From a virus (Duplodnaviria; Heunggongvirae; Uroviricota; Caudoviricetes), in the IMG/VR virus record IMGVR_UViG_3300029577_000220, positions 1 through 11,007 of that record: a stretch of DNA of 11,007 nucleotides, one strand, 5' to 3'. Shown piece after piece: positions 1 to 10,769 of this stretch; within the stretch, counting starts at the first letter, position 1, and every line of letters starts with the position of its first letter. A model generated the notes under the pieces. That model did no database searches. It had not been told where the DNA came from and saw only the letters and a list, made by a program, of their open reading frames with translations. The position numbers and the translations under genes are program-made.

Positions 1-1505
1 TGGTCTCTCATCCTTCTCCACTGCTGTACAAAATATAGTCTTAGCGTGGGATAATTTCCGTTTTCCAAGCGGACCCCTTTTTGTCCTCCATTCGCCCTGC
101 AAACAGGGTAGCCAGTTGGCCGATAATCAGAAGGTGAGACGCTCATAAGCTCTTTGCTGATGGTGGCCGACAGTGCGTCTTCGGTCATTTCACCGATTCC
201 GTCTTCCATCTCGTCGAGCGCCTTTAGCGCCTCCTCCAGAGTCATTTCATCCGGCGCAGGAACAAAGCCAGACTCACTGTCTTTGGGCACTTCCGCACCA
301 TCTTTATTTTCTTTGCCTTCGACGTCTTCTTCAGTTTCCCCACGATCAGTATCGGAGTCCTCACCGCCATCACCATCGATGCCAGAGCCATAACCATCAG
401 AATCATCGGTATCTTCGCGAATACCATCGCCAGGTCTTGGAGCGCCAGTGCCATTGCTGCCATCATCATCGGTGTCAGAGTCACTTGATTTCATGCCGAT
501 AGCATCGGATTCTGGGGTGTCTCCTGACTCTTCGTGGCCTGCTTCTGTATATTTACTTTCTGTATCACTAATATCTTTAACGTGTGTAGGTAAGTCCTTA
601 TCTAATGAATCAGGCAAATCGGAATCCCCAGAATCTTCCTCTTCTGATGCATCATCTTCTCGTTCTTCCTTGTCATCGCCTTCGCCTTTGGCAGGCTTAG
701 ATGCAGAGTCACCATGAGACGGCTCGTCACCTGATTCTGGCGTTTCCTCGGACTCGTCTTTGCTCTCCGACGGCTTTCTGGCAGATGATTTAAGTTCTGG
801 TAATTTGCCCTCTGGCTTGTCTTTCATATCCTGCATGATTTGGGCTATAGCAGCAGCGACCTTCACGCAATCCTCAGTGTTCGACATATTGCGAACGGCC
901 ACGTCTATACCATGCTCCTTTAGTAAGGCTACCGGCCTCTCGATAAGGCGCCAGTGTTCTTCCATAAAATCGATGAAGGGGCTTTGTCCATCCCAGGCGC
1001 GGACGACCGGGCAAAGGAAGAATTTCAAAAACAATTCACGCTGGTCTCCGTGACAGGCTAAAACCGCTTCTGGTACTTTATTCCTGAAGTATTTGTCGAT
1101 AACCAGACTCTGTGTTGCAAGTAAATTACGCCGGGTTCCGTTAAAGACCTGCCCCATTCTGCGTTCAATAAAAACGTCTTCCAGCGCATTCCAAAGCCCC
1201 GTAGACGGAGCCTTTCCTCTTTCGCGCATCTGCATTGCGACTTTCGGTTCAGTAAAGAGAATATGGGCCACCTCATGGTCGAGAAAACCACGCACTGCGT
1301 TCATGAGGGTTGGCGACGCGTCGTCCGGTATAGATGGGATGTTTACCAGCACTGGTTCGCCGCGCCGGTTATAGCGGACATATGCTTCATTGCCTCGTTC
1401 TGCAACAGGTATTTGTTTACCTGAAAGCATCGCTACAACTCGTTTTACACAGTCGCGAAAATCCTGCACCTCTTTCAGTACAGCTTTGGTGGTTTTTTTG
1501 GACAT
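1..1505 (-). CDS. Large protein with N-terminal globular region followed by a ~200-aa D/E/S/G-rich acidic low-complexity linker; architecture resembles CobT-like (cobaltochelatase CobT / vWA-associated) proteins. Start ATG at 1503-1505; 3' end lies beyond the window start, so ~501 codons are in the window.
   Basis: Minus-strand frame set by ATG 1503-1505 is open to position 3 (translated by hand at both ends: MSKKTTKAVLKEVQDFRDCVKRVVAMLSGKQIPVAERGNEAY ... SPSDYRPTGYPVCRANGGQKGVRLENGNYPTLRLYFVQQWRRMRD). AAGGGA Shine-Dalgarno-like sequence ~8 nt upstream of the ATG. The Ser-rich plus-strand ORFs in the track (154..717) are antisense shadows of the acidic repeat region. Family assignment is from architecture only. 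Confidence 0.6.
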   Translation of the reverse strand, partial: MSKKTTKAVLKEVQDFRDCVKRVVAMLSGKQIPVAERGNEAYVRYNRRGEPVLVNIPSIPDDASPTLMNAVRGFLDHEVAHILFTEPKVAMQMRERGKAPSTGLWNALEDVFIERRMGQVFNGTRRNLLATQSLVIDKYFRNKVPEAVLACHGDQRELFLKFFLCPVVRAWDGQSPFIDFMEEHWRLIERPVALLKEHGIDVAVRNMSNTEDCVKVAAAIAQIMQDMKDKPEGKLPELKSSARKPSESKDESEETPESGDEPSHGDSASKPAKGEGDDKEEREDDASEEEDSGDSDLPDSLDKDLPTHVKDISDTESKYTEAGHEESGDTPESDAIGMKSSDSDTDDDGSNGTGAPRPGDGIREDTDDSDGYGSGIDGDGGEDSDTDRGETEEDVEGKENKDGAEVPKDSESGFVPAPDEMTLEEALKALDEMEDGIGEMTEDALSATISKELMSVSPSDYRPTGYPVCRANGGQKGVRLENGNYPTLRLYFVQQWRRMRD

Positions 1506-2087: not shown

Positions 2088-2477
2088 ATGGCTACCAACG
2101 AAACAAAAGAAGCTAAAGTAAGTCGCTACGCTGCTTACATTGACGCTTTAATCGCGATTTCTCCGAAAAGCCAGGCGACCATCGCGAAAGAAGCAGGCTA
2201 TAAAAACCCTAACAATCTTTCACTTATCAAGAGCGGCAAAATCCCGCTTCCGATCGACAAGGTCAGAGCGTTGGCTAAAGCATTGGATGCCGATTCGGTC
2301 CGATTGATGCTAATGGTGCTGGAAGAGCGTCATCCAGAGCTGTTAGCGTTTTTTCGCGACGAAGGCACAGCCCCTCTGACTAAAGATGAAAAACTAGTTC
2401 TGGAAGCCTTCCGTCGACGTTTCGGTGACCAACGTGGTGCGTCGGAGCGGGTTGTTGAGGCAATCAAGTCGCTATGA
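2088..2477 (+). CDS. XRE/Cro-CI-type helix-turn-helix transcriptional regulator (129 aa from ATG 2088; the track ORF begins at an upstream in-frame TTG at 2079).
   Basis: HTH_3-like segment SQATIAKEAGYKNPNNLSLIKSGKIPLPIDKVRALAKALDAD; AGGT ~9 nt upstream of ATG 2088; AT-rich upstream region; convergent with the integrase and overlapping its 3' end by 6 bp. Confidence 0.65.
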   Translation: MATNETKEAKVSRYAAYIDALIAISPKSQATIAKEAGYKNPNNLSLIKSGKIPLPIDKVRALAKALDADSVRLMLMVLEERHPELLAFFRDEGTAPLTKDEKLVLEAFRRRFGDQRGASERVVEAIKSL

Positions 2478-3575
2478 GAAATTTACACGGATTAGCTCAG
2501 TAGCGAGTCGATCTCCCTTGAACTTATGATCTATCTCCTCTAAATCCTGTTTCTCTACGATTGATGCGATGTACGCCGAAAAACTGTTTAAGGCGTCTCG
2601 CATCTCGTCTATATAATCGTGTCGATCGTATACTCGATCTATCCCCTCAAGACTGTGGTTCATAATTTTGCGGGATACCTCCTGACTTATGCCTAACGCG
2701 GGGAAGTAACTACGCGCAGTACGACGCAAATCTCGGGGAGTAAATGGCTCAAGCTCCATCAACTCTGGACGTTCTAAAATCCTTCTCAACGCCTGTGATA
2801 TGGCCACCTTAGACATTGGCACATCCTCACCCTGTTTCTTGTTTGAAGGAACAAGCCACTGGCTGCCTTTTCCGTATTTGATCAGCTCCTCAACACATTT
2901 GCGCATTAGCGGGCTTAATGGTAACGAGTGCTGGCGAGCCGATTTATTCCTCGTTCCTTGATTCCATAAATTATATTCGAGGTTGAATTCTGATCTTTTA
3001 GCTCGGAGCACTTCATCTGGTCGTCTGGCCGCTACAAGGCATAATCTGGCCGCCCACTTTGTACCCTCACATACGTTGAAGTAGTCCCATACATTCCAAA
3101 AGACCCAGACCTCTGCGTCGGTCAGTTTGCGCTCGCGCGGCGTGGGCTTCGCGCCACCGGCTACTCTGTTAAGCGACATATCGTTCAATGGGGATGTATC
3201 AATTAAGCCCTGAAATGCACACCAACTGAGAAACTGCTTCATCAGCGAGAACACACGTCTGCCCTGGACGATCTTGCCCTCAAGTATTAATGGGTTCACC
3301 AGCTGGTTGACTAAAACCCTACTAATATCACTTACTTTTACTTCACAGATATGCGGCATTACATGTATCAAAATACAATGAACAGCTATTTCAGGTCGAC
3401 GTCTCGTTATCAGCAAAGATAAGCGAGTGAATAACATGAATGCGGAAGAAAACGACATATCACCGTCGAAATTGGTGGTCGACACTGCTGACAAACCGGA
3501 AGCGCGTTCGAGATACTCGATGGCTTCTCTAGAGGTGTTTTCTGCTGCGCGTGCTTTATCAAAAGTGTTTTTCAT
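2472..3575 (-). CDS. int: Tyrosine recombinase/integrase, P4-like family, lacking the N-terminal arm-binding (DUF4102-type) domain; possibly a truncated remnant.
   Basis: C-terminal catalytic region FTPRDLRRTARSYFPALGISQEVSRKIMNHSLEGIDRVYDRHDYID matches the integrase box II / R..Y architecture; core-binding region ISRVLVNQLVNPLILEGKIVQGRRVFSLMKQFLSWCAFQGLID matches the P4-integrase core-binding pattern. The region upstream of 3575 (3576-3874) is AT-rich and non-coding, so no arm-binding domain is encoded. Confidence 0.85.
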   Translation of the reverse strand: MKNTFDKARAAENTSREAIEYLERASGLSAVSTTNFDGDMSFSSAFMLFTRLSLLITRRRPEIAVHCILIHVMPHICEVKVSDISRVLVNQLVNPLILEGKIVQGRRVFSLMKQFLSWCAFQGLIDTSPLNDMSLNRVAGGAKPTPRERKLTDAEVWVFWNVWDYFNVCEGTKWAARLCLVAARRPDEVLRAKRSEFNLEYNLWNQGTRNKSARQHSLPLSPLMRKCVEELIKYGKGSQWLVPSNKKQGEDVPMSKVAISQALRRILERPELMELEPFTPRDLRRTARSYFPALGISQEVSRKIMNHSLEGIDRVYDRHDYIDEMRDALNSFSAYIASIVEKQDLEEIDHKFKGDRLATELIRVNFS

Positions 3576-3672
3576 AGTCCACTCACTGAGTGAAGCCTGT
3601 TTTTACTGTATTTATAAACAGTATGTTAGGCCTAAGTTTTGTATGATCAACAGTAAAATAGACTGTTTTTGA

Positions 3673-3707
3673 AAATGATTCCATACCTTACAAGTATGGA
3701 ATCATTT
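3673..3707. promoter_or_regulatory. Perfect 14-bp inverted repeat AAATGATTCCATAC-N7-GTATGGAATCATTT in the integrase upstream region; candidate operator/recombinase-binding site.
   Basis: Arms 3673-3686 and 3694-3707 are exact reverse complements; the arm core GTATGGAATCAT recurs at 5326-5337 and 6346-6357. Confidence 0.45.
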
Positions 3708-3874
3708 ATATAGCTTACGTAAATTCTGAATAAATTATGTAGACAAACCATCTTAAACGCTAAATAGTAAAAAGCGCCTAATAACGCCAACTTTGGAATG
3801 CCATCTGAGCCAGATTGATGAGAATGATTTGTTAGAAGAAAAAGAATGATGAAGAAGATGACGATCGCTAAAGT

Positions 3875-4830: not shown

Positions 4831-4908
4831 TTCTCGACGAAGCGTAGCATTCTACTACTGAACTTAACTATAAGCTAAAAAAAGTTGGTTGCATATGCGA
4901 CTTGATAG

Positions 4909-4929
4909 CAAAAAGGGGCCGAAGCCCCT
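4909..4929 (-). terminator. Rho-independent terminator downstream of tRNA-Asn (minus-strand sense GGGGC-UUCG-GCCCC followed by UUUUU).
   Basis: Plus strand 4910-4932 aaaaaggggccgaagcccctttg: 5-bp GC stem, UUCG tetraloop on the minus strand, T-run on the minus strand (A-run 4910-4914 on plus). Confidence 0.55.
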
Positions 4930-5005
4930 TTGGATTTTGCGCTGAAAAAAGTGTTGCTACGATGCTTAGAAGCAATGGTTAAAAAACGTCTGCCGTGTCT
5001 ATCAC

Positions 5006-5080
5006 AGCGCTGAACGGTCTGGCGACATTTGCGGAGTCTTTCGTTCGGACGGTGGTGGCGAATCCAAACCGTTCAGCGCT
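5006..5080. other. Long hairpin: 13-bp perfect inverted repeat (AGCGCTGAACGGT / ACCGTTCAGCGCT) enclosing 49 nt, immediately 3' of the tRNA; possible structured RNA or degenerate tRNA-like element.
   Basis: Arms 5006-5018 and 5068-5080 are exact reverse complements; the enclosed sequence does not fold as a cloverleaf by hand. Confidence 0.35.
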
Positions 5081-5084
5081 ATGT

Positions 5085-5159: not shown

Positions 5160-5408
5160 ATTTTCGCGGCGGTACTAGCTTATGGACAACCAGGCAGCCA
5201 GAAACTTTCCCGTAACTTGCACTTTACGTTAGTGCCAGACGAGGTATGTGGCTCGCTCATATGAGCGAAGATCTCGAATCTTTCTCGGTGGTTGATTGCC
5301 GTTAGATTCTTCGATCTTATTGGATGTATGGAATCATACATGTTGTGAAGCCAGGGGCAATAAAGGCAACAATGTTTTCACTAGAGGGTTAATTAATCCT
5401 GCTTTCAC

Positions 5409-5909: not shown

Positions 5910-6208
5910 TCTGTGATGCGTTTAGTTGCTATCTTTTTGATCAGGCTCCCCTTTTGTTCCGAAGTTCTCATGATGATGGCGGTAAAACGCTTCGCTTGAA
6001 TAGTGATAGTTTCGTTTTCCTTGAGTTCGCCGTAATGCGTCTCTAACAGGGACCCCAGACGCCACAGACCGTCGTCTATGCGTTTATGGCTGGCGAATCT
6101 GATCAGCAGTAGCTTTACGATTAACTGACCAATGTAAAAGGCAAATCCGAAGCCGGCCGCCACAAGGTAGGTTGCCAGCCACCAGTCGAAGGAAGTCAAA
6201 TTGCTCAT
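5903..6208 (-). CDS. Hypothetical small membrane protein (101 aa).
   Basis: ORF with ATG 6206-6208; hydrophobic segment WWLATYLVAAGFGFAFYIGQLIVKLLLI; start overlaps the stop of the upstream 50-aa ORF (ATGA). Confidence 0.5.
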   Translation of the reverse strand: MSNLTSFDWWLATYLVAAGFGFAFYIGQLIVKLLLIRFASHKRIDDGLWRLGSLLETHYGELKENETITIQAKRFTAIIMRTSEQKGSLIKKIATKRITDR

Positions 6209-6357
6209 TTTCGCACTCCCGTCTCGTGAACAACCCGATACACACGCTTACCGACACGAAGTGTTTTGGTTTGCAGTTCCTGCTGGACCAGGGCGCGGCA
6301 GATTGCGAGGCCGAGGCCCACGCCACCAGTAAAAGATAAAATGATGTATGGAATCAT
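6205..6357 (-). CDS. Hypothetical 50-aa protein with a hydrophobic N-terminus (MIPYIILSFTGGVGLGLAICRALVQQ...); not in the supplied ORF track (below the size cutoff).
   Basis: Hand translation: ATG at 6355-6357 overlaps the TGA of the 6357..6569 gene (TGATG), and its own TGA (6205-6207) overlaps the ATG of the 5903..6208 gene (ATGA). Confidence 0.3.
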   Translation of the reverse strand: MIPYIILSFTGGVGLGLAICRALVQQELQTKTLRVGKRVYRVVHETGVRK

Positions 6358-8643: not shown

Positions 8644-9099
8644 TTACCAGGTCGCCCAGCCAGTCATTTTGTCCTGAGCAGCTTCGAACCGGTATGGGTC
8701 CAGTAAATCGTTGGTACGATGAACGGCGTAGGATTTGGCTTCTTGTTTAATCATGGGTAATTCGTTGGCCAGACGAGCCACTTGCCCTGCAAAACTGGCG
8801 AGTACTCCGTCACATGCCTGACCCACGTCGACAATGATGCGCACCAGGTCTAAGTCGCTGCGGCACATATCGCAGATAATGCCGTATTCCACCTCACGAA
8901 TGCGCTCAACGGCTTTTTTGATATCGCCACTGACCACCAATTCCAGCAAACCAGGTGGAGTTGTCAGATCTGTTACGCGCTCGGTAACTTCAGACTGTTC
9001 GACAATACTCAGGAACGCCGCGATGGACGGGTCATCCGCCACACCAGCTCTGACTTTGAGCGTGCGAAGAGTTGCGTCGACAATATCCTCAAACCGTTC
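8644..9099 (-). pseudogene. 3' portion (151 codons) of a ~270-codon gene interrupted by IS629; product unknown.
   Basis: The track ORF 8644..9042 (GTG start) extends in frame, with no stop, up to the IS boundary at 9099 (ERFEDIVDATLRTLKVRAGV ADDPSIAAF...). The frame is continuous with the fragment at 10410..10769 once the IS and one TTC copy are removed. Confidence 0.7.
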
Positions 9100-9153
9100 T
9101 GAACCGCCCCGGAAATCCTGGAGACTAAACTCCCTGAGAAAGAGGTAAACAGG

Positions 9154-9480
9154 ATGACTAAAAATACTCGTTTTTCCCCCGAAGTCCGTCAGCGGGCGAT
9201 TCGTATGGTTCTGGAAAGTCAGGATGAATATGACTCACAGTGGGCGGCAATTTGTTCCATTGCCCCAAAGATTGGCTGTACGCCGGAGACTCTGCGTGTC
9301 TGGGTTCGCCAGCATGAGCGGGATACCGGGGGCGGTGATGGTGGGCTCACCAGCGCTGAACGTCAGCGTCTGAAAGAGCTGGAACGTGAAAATCGTGAAC
9401 TGCGCCGCAGTAACGATATCCTTCGCCAGGCTTCCGCTTATTTTGCGAAGGCGGAGTTCGACCGCCTCTGGAAAAAATGA
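9154..9480 (+). CDS. IS629 transposase OrfA (HTH and leucine-zipper part), 108 aa.
   Basis: [23 protein letters not shown]... is typical of IS629/IS1203-group OrfA; ends ...LWKK* at the A6 run 9472-9477, the expected -1 frameshift window. Confidence 0.9.
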
Positions 9481-10367
9481 TGCCACTGCTGGATAAGCTG
9501 CGTGAGCAGTACGGGGTCGGACCGGTATGCAGCGAACTGCATATTGCCCCGTCAACGTATTACCATTGTCAGCAACAGCGACATCATCCGGATAAACGCA
9601 GTGCCCGTGCGCAGCACGACGACTGGCTGAAGAGAGAGATACAGCGCGTATACGATGAAAATCATCAGGTGTACGGTGTGCGTAAAGTCTGGCGTCAGTT
9701 GTTACGGGAAGGAATCAGGGTGGCCAGATGTACAGTGGCACGTCTCATGGCGGTTATGGGACTTGCCGGTGTTCTCCGGGGTAAAAAGGTCCGTACGACC
9801 ATCAGCCGGAAAGCCGTTGCCGCAGGCGACCGCGTAAACCGTCAGTTCGTGGCAGAACGACCTGACCAGCTGTGGGTGGCTGATTTTACTTACGTCAGCA
9901 CATGGCAGGGCTTCGTCTATGTGGCGTTTATCATTGATGTGTTTGCCGGATACATCGTGGGGTGGCGGGTCTCATCGTCTATGGAAACGACATTCGTGCT
10001 GGATGCGCTGGAGCAGGCGTTGTGGGCCCGTCGTCCGTCTGGCACCATCCATCACAGCGATAAAGGCTCTCAGTATGTGTCACTGGCCTATACGGAGCGA
10101 CTAAAAGAAGCCGGATTACTGGCATCAACAGGGAGTACAGGCGACTCGTATGACAACGCGATGGCTGAGAGCATCAATGGTCTTTACAAAGCGGAGGTAA
10201 TACACCGTAAGAGCTGGAAAAACCGTGCAGAAGTGGAACTGGCCACACTAACGTGGGTGGACTGGTATAACAATCGACGATTGCTGGGAAGGCTGGGCCA
10301 TACTCCTCCGGCAGAAGCAGAAAAAGCTTATTATGCTTCCATCGGAAACGATGATCTGGCAGCCTGA
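9477..10367 (+). CDS. IS629 transposase OrfB (DDE/rve catalytic domain), 296 aa; expressed as an OrfAB fusion by -1 frameshifting.
   Basis: rve-type motifs [58 protein letters not shown]; overlaps orfA by 4 nt in the -1 frame. Confidence 0.9.
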
Positions 10368-10409
10368 GTTCACAGATAAAACACTCTCCAGGAAACCCGG
10401 GGCGGTTCA

Positions 10410-10769
10410 TTCACCTTCATCGCACACAGTCTGATTGGTGTAGACAGTCTGATTAGTGTAGACAATGCGACCGTCGTACCATGCACCGATACTCACTTCG
10501 ACCGTTGCGTCTTTCATCTCGCGAGAGAACGCCACAAGTGCCGCGCGTTTCTGCTTAACACCTGACAACTCCGGGGACTCTCCAAAACGAACCCAGACCT
10601 GCATGTATTTCGAGCCTTCCGAAAGAGGTACGGTGCTCACGGACGTGGCGATATGCTCCAGTGCAGTTTGGATCGCCTCGTCGATAATCTTCTGGCGCTC
10701 TTCTGTATCAATTTCTACGCCGGATTTGTCGATGATGTCGCAGACTAACTTCTGAAATTCTTCTTTCAT
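10410..10769 (-). pseudogene. 5' portion (120 codons) of the IS629-interrupted gene; its promoter and RBS are intact.
   Basis: ATG at 10767-10769 with AGGAG 7 nt upstream; the ORF runs into the IS629 right end, where it meets a stop supplied by the IS terminal TGA (10407-10409). Confidence 0.7.
10428..10463. repeat. 18-bp tandem duplication (AGTCTGATTGGTGTAGAC / AGTCTGATTAGTGTAGAC) inside the interrupted gene, encoding VYTNQT twice.
   Basis: Units 10428-10445 and 10446-10463 differ at one position; in frame. Confidence 0.6.

Follow-up and report, generated by a model that had tools for sequence, protein, structure and literature searches.

We have identified, in an 11,007-nucleotide stretch (the window) of an E. 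coli phage-plasmid of the pHCM2/pMT1/pLF82 type, a short tyrosine recombinase gene, int, and a perfect palindrome just upstream of it. Together they probably form a self-contained multimer-resolution module resembling Cre/loxP, built from a P4-type integrase that would have shed its arm-binding domain. An intact short recombinase that always adjoins its own palindrome of 33-35 bp most likely serves to keep the plasmid as single circles. Both the recombinase family and its palindromic site appear to be hitherto undescribed, and a full-text search of the literature for the arm sequences returned unrelated primer matches only.

The recombinase and its descent

The int gene occupies positions 2472-3575 on the minus strand and encodes, from an ATG start, an arm-less tyrosine recombinase of 367 aa. 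In Pfam searches, residues 173-319 of Int match Phage_integrase (PF00589; E 6.5e-9, 36.2 bits, cut-off 27.1) and residues 71-133 give a sub-threshold match to Phage_int_M (PF22022; 20.4 bits, 27-bit cut-off), the P4-type central (core-binding) domain, which is recorded in most Int homologues. The arm-binding domain (PF13356, DUF4102) has no match in the Int of the window and is absent from all of the approximately 110 Int family members among the matches listed, and it is present in all next-best matches outside the family. PRK09692, a model of P4/CP4-57-type integrases, is the sole NCBIfam match of Int and is covered from profile position 137 to 394 of 413. When Int was aligned by BLASTP with a 419-aa P4-type integrase that carries PF13356 (29% identity over 320 residues, E 1e-34), residue 41 of Int paired with residue 108 of the longer protein, so that some 107 N-terminal residues of the P4-type enzyme have been swapped for 40 in Int, where two short helices are predicted. 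Int seems to derive from P4/SXT-type integrases after loss of the N-terminal arm-binding domain.

These results uphold the sequence-only reading of this DNA, which had the core-binding and catalytic domains kept and the arm-binding domain absent, and the alignment that it proposed to full-length P4-type integrases has located the truncation point. It had also allowed for an in-frame upstream segment that would restore DUF4102. None exists, and a hidden N-terminal exon or frameshift was rejected as well, since all three upstream frames contain stops and the DNA past the palindrome is not conserved among relatives. The first 70 or so codons, which had been called atypical, differ weakly in composition (GC 0.43 against 0.44-0.51 in the rest of the gene). 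They are nevertheless under purifying selection (dN/dS 0.03-0.16, compared with 0.03-0.07 for the gene overall), and the N-terminal residues S53, L54, R58, R59, P61 and E62 are invariant.

From alignments with homologues and P4-type integrases, the candidate catalytic residues are R185, K211, R284, H307 and the nucleophile Y316, together with R281, which takes up the His-I position. The first five are invariant or nearly so across the family alignment, H307 being replaced by Q in three of 23 sequences. The His-I position is occupied by Arg in 23/23 family members and in one of six arm-bearing relatives; with this Arg present family-wide, the activity of Int is not to be assumed from the motif alone. 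The AlphaFold model of Int (pLDDT 82) has its best fold matches in the core-binding and catalytic domains of lambda Int, of which residues 75-356 are matched with a target-normalised TM of 0.71-0.74 and an E of 4e-6 (Foldseek). XerH is also among the fold matches, and Cre (E 0.04-0.1, TM about 0.4) scores worse than lambda Int, Tn1549 Int, IntI and Xer. A profile search of PDB sequences with Int gave no match.

Approximately 150 homologues of Int, 340-380 aa in length and with identities down to 43%, were found, and the arm domain occurs in none of them. Among 1.84 billion representative proteins the family is confined to two full-length clusters (557 and 518 bits), below which a gap in bit score extends down to 201 bits, where the first P4-type integrases of about 400-420 aa appear.

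The palindromic site upstream of int

The DNA upstream of int (3576-3874) has a GC content of 0.32-0.37 versus 0.43-0.53 in the gene, and on the minus strand it contains no ORF of at least 50 aa and has stops in all three frames, which agrees with the earlier description of some 300 bp of AT-rich, non-coding sequence. Within it, at 3673-3707, lies a candidate recombination (crossover) site that is conserved in relatives. Its two 14-nt arms, AAATGATTCCATAC (3673-3686) and GTATGGAATCATTT (3694-3707), are 100% complementary and stand 7 nt apart; the sequence-only reading had reported a 14-bp palindrome at these coordinates. No other perfect inverted repeat of such size occurs in the window. The plus-strand sequence of the central region (3687-3693) is CTTACAA, which becomes TTGTAAG when read in the orientation of int, and 97 bp separate the end of the palindrome from the int start codon.

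A 13-7-13 palindrome is found 45-149 bp upstream of the recombinase gene in 172 related loci, which include Yersinia pestis pMT1, Klebsiella and Xenorhabdus as well as megaplasmids of Pantoea, Rahnella and Erwinia. All 64 full-length loci seeded with the protein, from about 20 genera, carry a single such palindrome just upstream of int. In the reverse test, in which viral contigs were seeded with the site, int adjoins the site in 107 of 113, the other six being cut off near the site or interrupted. One viral contig (L194) carries an orphan B-type site without int. The counts for the two kinds of seed, together with the co-variation of the arms described below, strongly support the earlier suggestion that int encodes a bona fide short recombinase of a phage-plasmid, with the palindrome at 3673-3707 as its partner.

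The arms differ symmetrically between two clades of Int (TGATTCCATAC in one and TGACTCCAGAC in the other), the half-site pairs being AATGATTCCATAC/GTATGGAATCATT and TGTGACTCCAGAC/GTCTGGAGTCACA, respectively. The spacer between them is AT-rich and has a constant length of 7 bp, with 15 and 10 sequence variants in the two clades. Arms that co-vary with the recombinase around a centre of constant length and variable sequence are the pattern expected of recombinase half-sites flanking an overlap region. The spacer occurs in both orientations relative to int; such flips cannot arise through ordinary site-specific recombination and may be hairpin-loop inversions that involve no recombinase. Sequence homology between distant relatives extends no further than the outer boundary of the site, past which the cargo differs.

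A role for the palindrome as the terminator of the yafO operon or as a 5'-UTR hairpin was considered and rejected. It has no U-tract, its upstream neighbour differs between loci and its centre is found in both orientations, and a terminator-like hairpin with a T-run is present at 3773-3788 (minus strand), downstream of the yafO-like gene. This hairpin suggests that the upstream operon ends before the palindrome.

A model for multimer resolution

According to the model that we favour, two Int monomers would bind the two inverted arms of 13-14 bp. A pair of sites would be available only when the plasmid is dimeric or multimeric, or perhaps when phage DNA has just been injected and its ends are terminally redundant, and the paired sites would be held in an Int tetramer. 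Cleavage by Tyr316 would take place where the 7-bp central region meets the arms, and the strands would be exchanged via a Holliday junction. The asymmetry of the 7-bp centre would set the polarity of the site, whereby head-to-tail multimers would be converted into monomers; arm-type sites and an arm-binding domain would play no part. We infer the binding of Int to the arms, the cleavage and the role in multimer resolution from comparative sequence data.

Putative regulatory sequences and lone arm copies

Between the palindrome and the int start codon, a LexA (SOS) box, TACTGTATTTATAAACAGTA, is found at 3604-3623. It matches the consensus TACTGTATATATATACAGTA at 18 of 20 positions and is the only CTGT-N8-ACAG in the window (0.22 expected). 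Among unique intergenic sequences from relatives, the box, with a variable N8, is present in 47 of 55 where Int identity is at least 80% and in 8/12 in the group with 55-59% identity, giving 55/67 for the phage-plasmid clades, and it is absent from the megaplasmid clade. A candidate int promoter abuts it at 3623-3650 on the minus strand, with a -35 element TTGATC (3650-3645), a 16-nt spacer and a -10 element TAACAT (3628-3623); it was read by eye and, at 8/12, falls below the scan threshold, so it is offered tentatively. From the conservation of the box we infer that int is repressed by LexA and raised in the SOS response in the enterobacterial phage-plasmid branch. Such control is unusual in a housekeeping resolvase. 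The phage Cyrano, a relative of the element in the window, is induced by ciprofloxacin (PMC9928086).

Convergent with int, a gene for an XRE-family regulator lies at 2088-2477 on the plus strand, and the 3' ends of the two genes overlap by 6 nt. The regulator is named 'putative repressor' (CYRAN_45) in Cyrano and is expressed in the Cyrano lysogen (PMC9928086). Adjacency of the XRE gene to int is restricted to family members that are phage-plasmids; the gene is missing in the megaplasmid members, and the palindrome tracks Int and not the XRE gene.

Single arms also occur at three places 1.6-6.3 kb away from the site, one of them at dnaE, and these lone copies show conservation at the DNA level. 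A 15-mer, ATGATTCCATACATC, is found at 5323-5337 (minus strand), approximately 165-170 bp upstream of tRNA-Asn, and at 6343-6357 (minus strand), where it spans the start codon of a 50-aa ORF (6205-6357) that matches phrog_6302. Both copies point to the palindrome, and all 15 nt are unchanged in nine unique relatives for the former and in eight for the latter. Apart from ATC, no spacer sequence is common to the lone copies and the core site, or to the lone copies among themselves. An additional motif copy within int (2957-2969) is conserved only over W-N-Q codons and was set aside as probably a coding coincidence. Nothing similar to the lone copies exists in Cre/loxP, and the motif could also, or instead, be an operator.

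The palindrome might accordingly be mainly a transcriptional operator, either for autorepression of Int or for another regulator such as the XRE protein, with the lone 15-mers as further operators. The dispersed asymmetric C1 operators of phage P1 provide a parallel. The palindrome precedes the likely -35 element of int by about 20 bp, the XRE gene adjoins int in the phage-plasmids, and selection acts at the DNA level on the three lone copies, of which one overlaps a start codon and another lies ahead of a tRNA gene. However, the palindrome is equally conserved beside int in megaplasmids that have neither an XRE neighbour nor phage genes, its arms co-vary with the Int clade, and a fixed, AT-rich and asymmetric 7-bp centre is a hallmark of tyrosine-recombinase core sites. 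In addition, no lone B-type arm copies were found in the Xenorhabdus B-type phage-plasmid. We regard a mainly regulatory palindrome as unlikely, and Int regulating its own expression from the crossover site would be compatible with multimer resolution too.

It is also conceivable, though doubtful, that in pHCM2/pMT1/pLF82-type phage-plasmids Int combines resolution with an SOS-triggered role in lysis-lysogeny. Release of LexA would then send int transcription into the convergent, overlapping repressor gene and cause antisense interference, and Int would also bind the three one-armed 15-bp ATGATTCCATACATC sites, all facing the core site. If this were true, a P4-derived arm-less recombinase would have gained dispersed core-type accessory or regulatory sites, for which we know of no described counterpart.

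Replicon distribution and copy number

The surroundings and the distribution of int and its site bear on whether Int could be a true integrase, for which the palindrome would serve as a simple attP and an attB on a chromosome or plasmid would receive all or part of the phage-plasmid. The nearest kin of Int are P4-type integrases, a tRNA-Asn gene is 1.4 kb away, the cargo adjoining the site differs among relatives, and the orphan B-type site in contig L194 could be read in the same way. Chromosomal integration of pMT1/pFra in Yersinia pestis has reportedly occurred. Against this, among 5,426 complete E. coli genomes 254 copies of int were counted and 252 genomes had the site, so that about 5% of this collection carries the module, and there was no chromosomal copy of either the gene or the site. 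The named replicons outside E. coli (pC3_1, pA, pPANA1 and an Erwinia plasmid) are all plasmids. The site is intact in every locus and never split into attL and attR, including on contigs of 0.5-0.9 Mb.

The att-like repeats of a tRNA 3' end that the sequence-only reading had proposed to look for did not materialize, a search for repeats of at least 11 nt of the tRNA-Asn 3' end yielding chance 11-mers only. The variable cargo ends on its far side, at about position 4908, in a GC-rich bidirectional terminator that contains no half-site, and an integron-like degenerate site at that end of the yafO cargo was rejected on the same grounds. Furthermore, Int has no arm-binding domain, and a published classification regards this domain as indispensable if element-borne tyrosine recombinases are to function in mobility (PMC8138268). 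Integration as the function of Int is, in our judgement, improbable.

Each plasmid carries one full site, as seen in the 252 E. coli genomes and in a complete 115-kb plasmid, in which a second full site was not found and Int is the sole annotated site-specific recombinase. Natural recombination products (dimer, cointegrate or hybrid site) were not seen. The sequence-only reading had offered dimer resolution or inversion as functions; the former fits one full site per plasmid and the latter does not. An invertase or shufflon-type enzyme, flipping a segment between inverted sites, has a precedent in Rci, an arm-less member of an arm-bearing subgroup (PMC8138268), and the lone one-armed copies do lie in both orientations around the core site. 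Nevertheless, the lone copies lack a common spacer, and every relative examined shows the same synteny across the 9-kb region and none an inverted arrangement, which makes a segment-flipping role very improbable.

Finally, the idea that int is a decaying remnant of a P4-type integrase beside an unrelated hairpin such as a terminator, to which the missing N-terminal domain and the AT-rich upstream DNA had given rise, can be dismissed: the gene is under strong purifying selection throughout, length is kept in the approximately 150 homologues, the N-terminal motifs and catalytic residues are conserved, and the palindrome has no U-tract, is preceded by a separate terminator-like hairpin, has its asymmetric centre in both orientations and shows arm mismatches in outlier loci that are not wobble-compatible.

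Comparison with known systems

In sequence, Int is closest to the P4/CP4-57/SXT-type integrases, with 28-33% identity across the core-binding and catalytic domains, and both IntSXT and Int possess an HDLRRT-type box and a YDRHDY tyrosine box. IntSXT differs in carrying the DUF4102 domain, which characterises its subgroup (PMC8138268). Integration beside a conserved chromosomal gene or tRNA, with direct att repeats left behind, would be expected of that subgroup, but neither an att repeat of the tRNA 3' end nor a chromosomal copy was found for the Int system. In place of an attP with arm sites, a perfect palindrome adjoins int.

In organization, the module is more reminiscent of Cre/loxP of P1 and of Dre/rox, Panto/pox and Nigri/nox, in which a two-domain tyrosine recombinase without an arm-binding domain is paired with a single target site beside its gene, consisting of two 13-bp inverted repeats and a short asymmetric spacer. 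Cre/loxP is likewise carried by a low-copy phage-plasmid, and the established role of Cre, which we propose for Int as well, is to keep the plasmid monomeric (PMC2409434; PMC7969092). Int nonetheless has no sequence relationship with Cre, their fold match is weak, and the spacer is 7 bp in the Int site compared with 8 bp in Cre-type sites. The Arg at His-I, the LexA box and the lone half-site copies further set the Int module apart from the Cre systems. Identity with Panto/pox was rejected; Panto, from Pantoea, is 41% identical to Cre and pox resembles rox, and the pair is a different, Cre-like system. Published screens for Cre-type enzymes demanded Cre-like sequences and 13-8-13 sites, so a module with a 7-bp spacer and no likeness to Cre would have been missed.

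XerS/difSL, XerH/difH and ResD/rfsF of plasmid F each combine one recombinase with one adjacent site and resolve replicon dimers. Their enzymes are of the Xer type or other simple recombinases and, unlike Int, are not P4-derived; the arms of their sites are imperfect, and FtsK is required in some of these systems. The IRS of Tn4430, on which TnpI acts, has extra half-site motifs outside the core within about 100 bp, a much shorter range than that of the lone copies around the Int core site. The plasmid-borne IncI shufflon recombinase Rci uses sites with a 7-bp spacer, and it acts on several inverted, one-armed sfx sites and inverts segments, in contrast to the one symmetric full site per replicon for Int. 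Like Int, Rci is arm-less within an arm-bearing subgroup, IntP2 in its case (PMC8138268).

Implications

Clinical Enterobacteriaceae commonly carry phage-plasmids of the pHCM2/pMT1/pLF82 group, and the module is also present on Yersinia pestis pMT1. Annotations routinely label the 'integrase' of these phage-plasmids as an enzyme of integration, yet an integrated copy of the elements is never found. If lox-like resolution is true, it would explain the monomeric state of large, low-copy phage-plasmids and of the big plasmids of Pantoea, Rahnella and Erwinia, and it would be a clear example of a lineage of complex, arm-dependent integrases that has returned to simple site-specific recombination. 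The conservation of the LexA box provides a testable link between DNA damage and plasmid recombination. In addition, candidate orthogonal tools for genome engineering would then be available in the form of no fewer than two natural specificities (A-type and B-type arms) and some two dozen natural 7-bp spacers.

Linkage of the recombinase gene and the palindrome

The gene of the arm-less tyrosine recombinase Int (int; window 2472..3575, minus strand; 367 aa) is accompanied upstream by the palindrome at 3673-3707, whose arms (3673-3686 and 3694-3707) are perfect and 7 nt apart; its position is the one given in the sequence-only reading, which had named it the possible partner of the enzyme. A scan limited to a single genome of each species found 65 loci in genera that include Yersinia, Kluyvera, Buttiauxella, Chimaeribacter, Pantoea, Rahnella, Erwinia, Ewingella, Hafnia, Xenorhabdus, Photorhabdus and Morganella, and in all 64 with a full-length int homologue one inverted repeat with a 7-bp centre lies directly upstream of it. 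With viral contigs included, the site stands 45-149 bp ahead of the start codon in 172 loci. In the reverse test, int adjoins the site in 107 of 113 viral contigs chosen by the site alone; five of the remaining six end near the site, and one (IMG/VR contig L132) is interrupted. In L132 the insertion (13200-14137) is a group II intron with a reverse transcriptase gene; it directly follows the LexA box and precedes int. For the second arm type, int was present in seven of eight site-seeded contigs. The exception, IMG/VR contig L194, has an orphan B-type site with an unusually GC-rich centre at 5271-5299 (TGTGACTCCAGAC-CTCGTGA-GTCTGGAGTCACA), and no int homologue was found within 5 kb on either side.

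The convergent XRE gene at 2088-2477 (annotated “putative repressor” in Escherichia phage Cyrano) stands beside int in phage-plasmid members only; the Pantoea, Rahnella, Erwinia and Ewingella loci lack it, and their int lies amid ordinary plasmid cargo genes. Since Int is the only homologous protein common to all loci with a homologous palindrome, comparative sequence evidence makes it the most economical candidate for the protein that would bind the arms.

Arms and centre of the site

Two arm types occur in the Int family. The A-type, AATGATTCCATAC-N7-GTATGGAATCATT, is found in enterobacterial phage-plasmids and Chimaeribacter, and the B-type, TGTGACTCCAGAC-N7-GTCTGGAGTCACA, in all remaining members, including Pantoea, Rahnella and Erwinia megaplasmids and Xenorhabdus, Photorhabdus and Morganella phage-plasmids. 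Wherever one arm differs between the types, the other differs at the corresponding position, indicating symmetric change, and a few loci have intermediate, asymmetric arms with mismatches that are not wobble-compatible. Three Chimaeribacter genomes (locus pairs L007/L059, L008/L052 and L009/L046) each carry two paralogous recombinase and site modules on separate contigs, one A-type and the other with intermediate asymmetric arms (TGACGCCAGAC / GTATGGAGTCA) and a different spacer; these look like co-resident, mutually distinct systems.

The centre is invariably 7 bp and AT-rich, usually T-N4-A-G or its exact reverse complement, with 15 variants in the first (A-type) clade and 10 in the second. 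Exact reverse-complement pairs among close relatives (TTAATAG/CTATTAA, TCTATAG/CTATAGA, TTATATA/TATATAA) indicate that the asymmetric centre flips relative to int. Ordinary site-specific recombination leaves the spacer oriented as before towards each flank, and the flips would therefore more likely reflect hairpin-loop inversion, and by themselves they are no evidence of recombinase activity. Among distant relatives, similarity spans int and the palindrome and ends at the outer edge of the latter (window 3705-3711), past which the cargo differs, being a YafO-family toxin module in the window and three other genes in Cyrano.

Lone copies of the arm motif

The exact 12-mer ATGATTCCATAC recurs at window 5326-5337 and 6346-6357, both on the minus strand, within copies of the 15-mer ATGATTCCATACATC (5323-5337 and 6343-6357), and a third lone copy lies inside dnaE (L184, position 21724). 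The three are 1.6-6.3 kb from the core site. On the complete 115-kb plasmid, for which chance predicts about 0.05 exact 11-mers, the motif is confined to a 9-kb stretch around int. It is found within dnaE, in a weak form within int itself, and in the palindrome; the other occurrences lie upstream of tRNA-Asn and across the start codon of a 50-aa ORF. The strand switches at the palindrome, one strand carrying the copies to its left and the opposite strand the copies to its right, and every copy is thus directed at the palindrome. Unbiased alignments show no variation across 14-16 consecutive columns of the dnaE copy, third codon positions included, while its flanks vary every third base; both upstream copies are invariant over the 15-mer, and the copy inside int shows no conservation. 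No lone copies with B-type arms were found in a Xenorhabdus phage-plasmid.

Candidate roles for these copies are solitary binding sites for Int and operators for a different protein. It is chiefly these copies that leave some weight to reading the motif as an operator.

The recombinase protein

The core-binding and catalytic domains are kept, with a Pfam catalytic domain at residues 173-319 and a sub-cut-off P4-type central domain at 71-133, and Int has no Pfam match to any arm-binding domain, in agreement with the sequence-only reading. Its only NCBIfam match, PRK09692 (a P4/CP4-57-type model), starts at profile position 137 of 413. In pairwise alignment, residue 41 pairs with residue 108 of a 419-aa PF13356-bearing P4-type integrase; Int was also placed in a multiple alignment with P4-type integrases. 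The AlphaFold model (pLDDT 82) has two short helices at residues 7-26, after which come a core-binding domain of the usual helical kind and the catalytic domain; in structure comparisons it fits best with lambda Int (75-356), Tn1549 Int, IntI and Xer proteins, and Cre is a far weaker match.

The roughly 150 homologues with identities down to 43% range from 340 to 380 aa in length and lack PF13356 without exception; the next matches (28-33% identity) are 417-464-aa integrases with PF13356. Among 1.84 billion library representatives, the family is reduced to two full-length clusters (557 and 518 bits); the scores then drop to 201 bits, the level at which ordinary 400-420-aa P4-type integrases set in. 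Against three relatives, dN/dS is 0.035-0.07 over the whole of int and 0.03-0.16 in the first 70 codons, whose supposedly atypical composition proved marginal (GC 0.43 versus 0.44-0.51). S53, L54, R58, R59, P61 and E62 are invariant in the N-terminal part, and the catalytic residues R185, K211, R284, H307 and Y316 are conserved in the family; at the His-I position, Arg (R281) is found throughout the family, and also in one of six arm-bearing relatives. The 300 bp 5' of int are indeed AT-rich and non-coding (GC 0.32-0.37), with stops in every frame, so no in-frame upstream segment restores an arm domain. A decaying integrase is ruled out by the conserved homologue length, the low dN/dS and the intact catalytic set.

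DUF4102 is a characteristic feature of the IntSXT/P4 subgroup (PMC8138268) and was not found in Int, which is best described, by sequence, as an arm-less derivative and offshoot of that subgroup. Rci, of the IntP2 subgroup, is a published precedent for arm-domain loss (PMC8138268).

Replicon and distribution

The E. coli plasmid pEC21Z137-115K is 99.9% identical to the 2.3 kb surrounding int and the palindrome. Identity to this region is 74-89% for several hundred plasmids of ~105-115 kb that are non-mobilizable and come from Escherichia, Salmonella, Enterobacter, Citrobacter, Klebsiella and Yersinia pestis (pMT1), and 76-79% for Cyrano (pLF82) and similar phage-plasmids. A complete relative encodes repA, parB, dnaE and ligase together with tail, capsid and terminase genes. 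These matches and gene content identify the window as part of a pHCM2/pMT1/pLF82 (“SSU5 supergroup”) phage-plasmid, a group described as persistently encoding “tyrosine recombinases”, without further analysis (PMC7969092).

Among 5,426 complete E. coli genomes, int occurs in 254 copies and the site in 252 genomes, on plasmids only and with one site per plasmid; no chromosomal int or site was found. The full site is likewise single on the complete 115-kb plasmid, which has no second annotated site-specific recombinase besides IS transposases and a homing endonuclease. In other genera, records naming the replicon place int on plasmids of 122-456 kb.

LexA box and convergent repressor gene

A near-consensus LexA box, TACTGTATTTATAAACAGTA, lies at 3604-3623, between the palindrome and the int start codon, and is abutted by a weak promoter-like pair (TTGATC-16-TAACAT). 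CTGT-N8-ACAG, with varying N8, is present in 47 of 55 unique intergenic sequences from relatives with Int identity of at least 80% and in 8 of 12 from the Klebsiella-type group, and never in the megaplasmid clade. Ciprofloxacin induces Cyrano (PMC9928086). These patterns suggest that int would be under SOS control in enterobacterial phage-plasmids. The int and XRE genes are convergent, their 3' ends overlap by 6 nt (window 2472-2477) and no terminator separates them, which means that int transcripts made in the SOS response would continue into the repressor gene in antisense orientation. Speculatively, such transcription from the LexA-controlled region could form an SOS switch.

Neighbouring elements

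An IS3-family element of 1,310 bp (9100-10409), absent from pEC21Z137-115K, contains orfA/orfB (9154-10367) and an ALIL frameshift pseudoknot (RF01497; 9435-9551). It has terminal repeats TGAACCGCCCCGG.../...CCGGGGCGGTTCA and flanks overlapping by 3 bp, and interrupts a hypothetical gene, whose parts are now ORFs 8644-9042 and 10407-10769. Relative to the same plasmid, ~660 bp (plasmid coordinates 23771 to 24432) are missing at window 77-118, within a CobT-like gene annotated “porphyrin biosynthesis protein”.

The minus-strand segment 3875-4830 holds a YafO-family toxin gene (PF13957, E 1e-19), overlapping by 10 nt an upstream 182-aa ORF, a possible novel antitoxin gene without a family match. 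The cargo, 1.2 kb long and replaced by three unrelated genes in Cyrano, is flanked on one side by the candidate recombination site and on the other by a GC-rich bidirectional terminator (~4908-4935). Directly 3' of tRNA-Asn is an inverted repeat (5003-5083; 20-nt arms, 90% complementary, 41 nt apart; -38.9 kcal/mol as folded RNA, z -5.9), which is conserved in Cyrano after tRNA-Ser instead; the tRNA-Ser and tRNA-Thr genes of Cyrano are missing from the window. The 50-aa ORF at 6205-6357 (minus strand; MIPYIILSFTGG...) is unannotated in the RefSeq plasmid, corresponds to CYRAN_38 in Cyrano, has a full-length match to phrog_6302 (E 1e-32) and is apparently translationally coupled to both neighbouring ORFs.

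Discussion

Of the two alternatives that had been offered, the second was right: Int appears to be a bona fide short recombinase, a conserved and functional-looking arm-less P4-derived enzyme, and its partner palindrome is a 13-7-13 site. We found no description in the literature of this recombinase's site or LexA box; the particulars of the module are undescribed and have some tool potential. Published Cre-type discovery pipelines look for 13-8-13 sites. The Cre-like Panto/pox of Pantoea is unrelated to the Int module.

The same arrangement, a single site beside the recombinase, characterizes Cre/loxP in P1 (PMC2409434). We propose that the Int module works alike, although it belongs to another lineage, has no sequence similarity to Cre/loxP and has a spacer of 7 rather than 8 bp. 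A single polar site per monomer, beside the recombinase gene, on low-copy replicons for which integration has never been observed, is what marks a multimer-resolution system. We thus consider a plasmid multimer-resolution module, on balance, the most likely identity of Int and its lox-like 13-7-13 site, and by analogy it might also cyclise terminally redundant infecting DNA. Since phage-plasmids are expected to have such systems, the module would be ordinary in kind.
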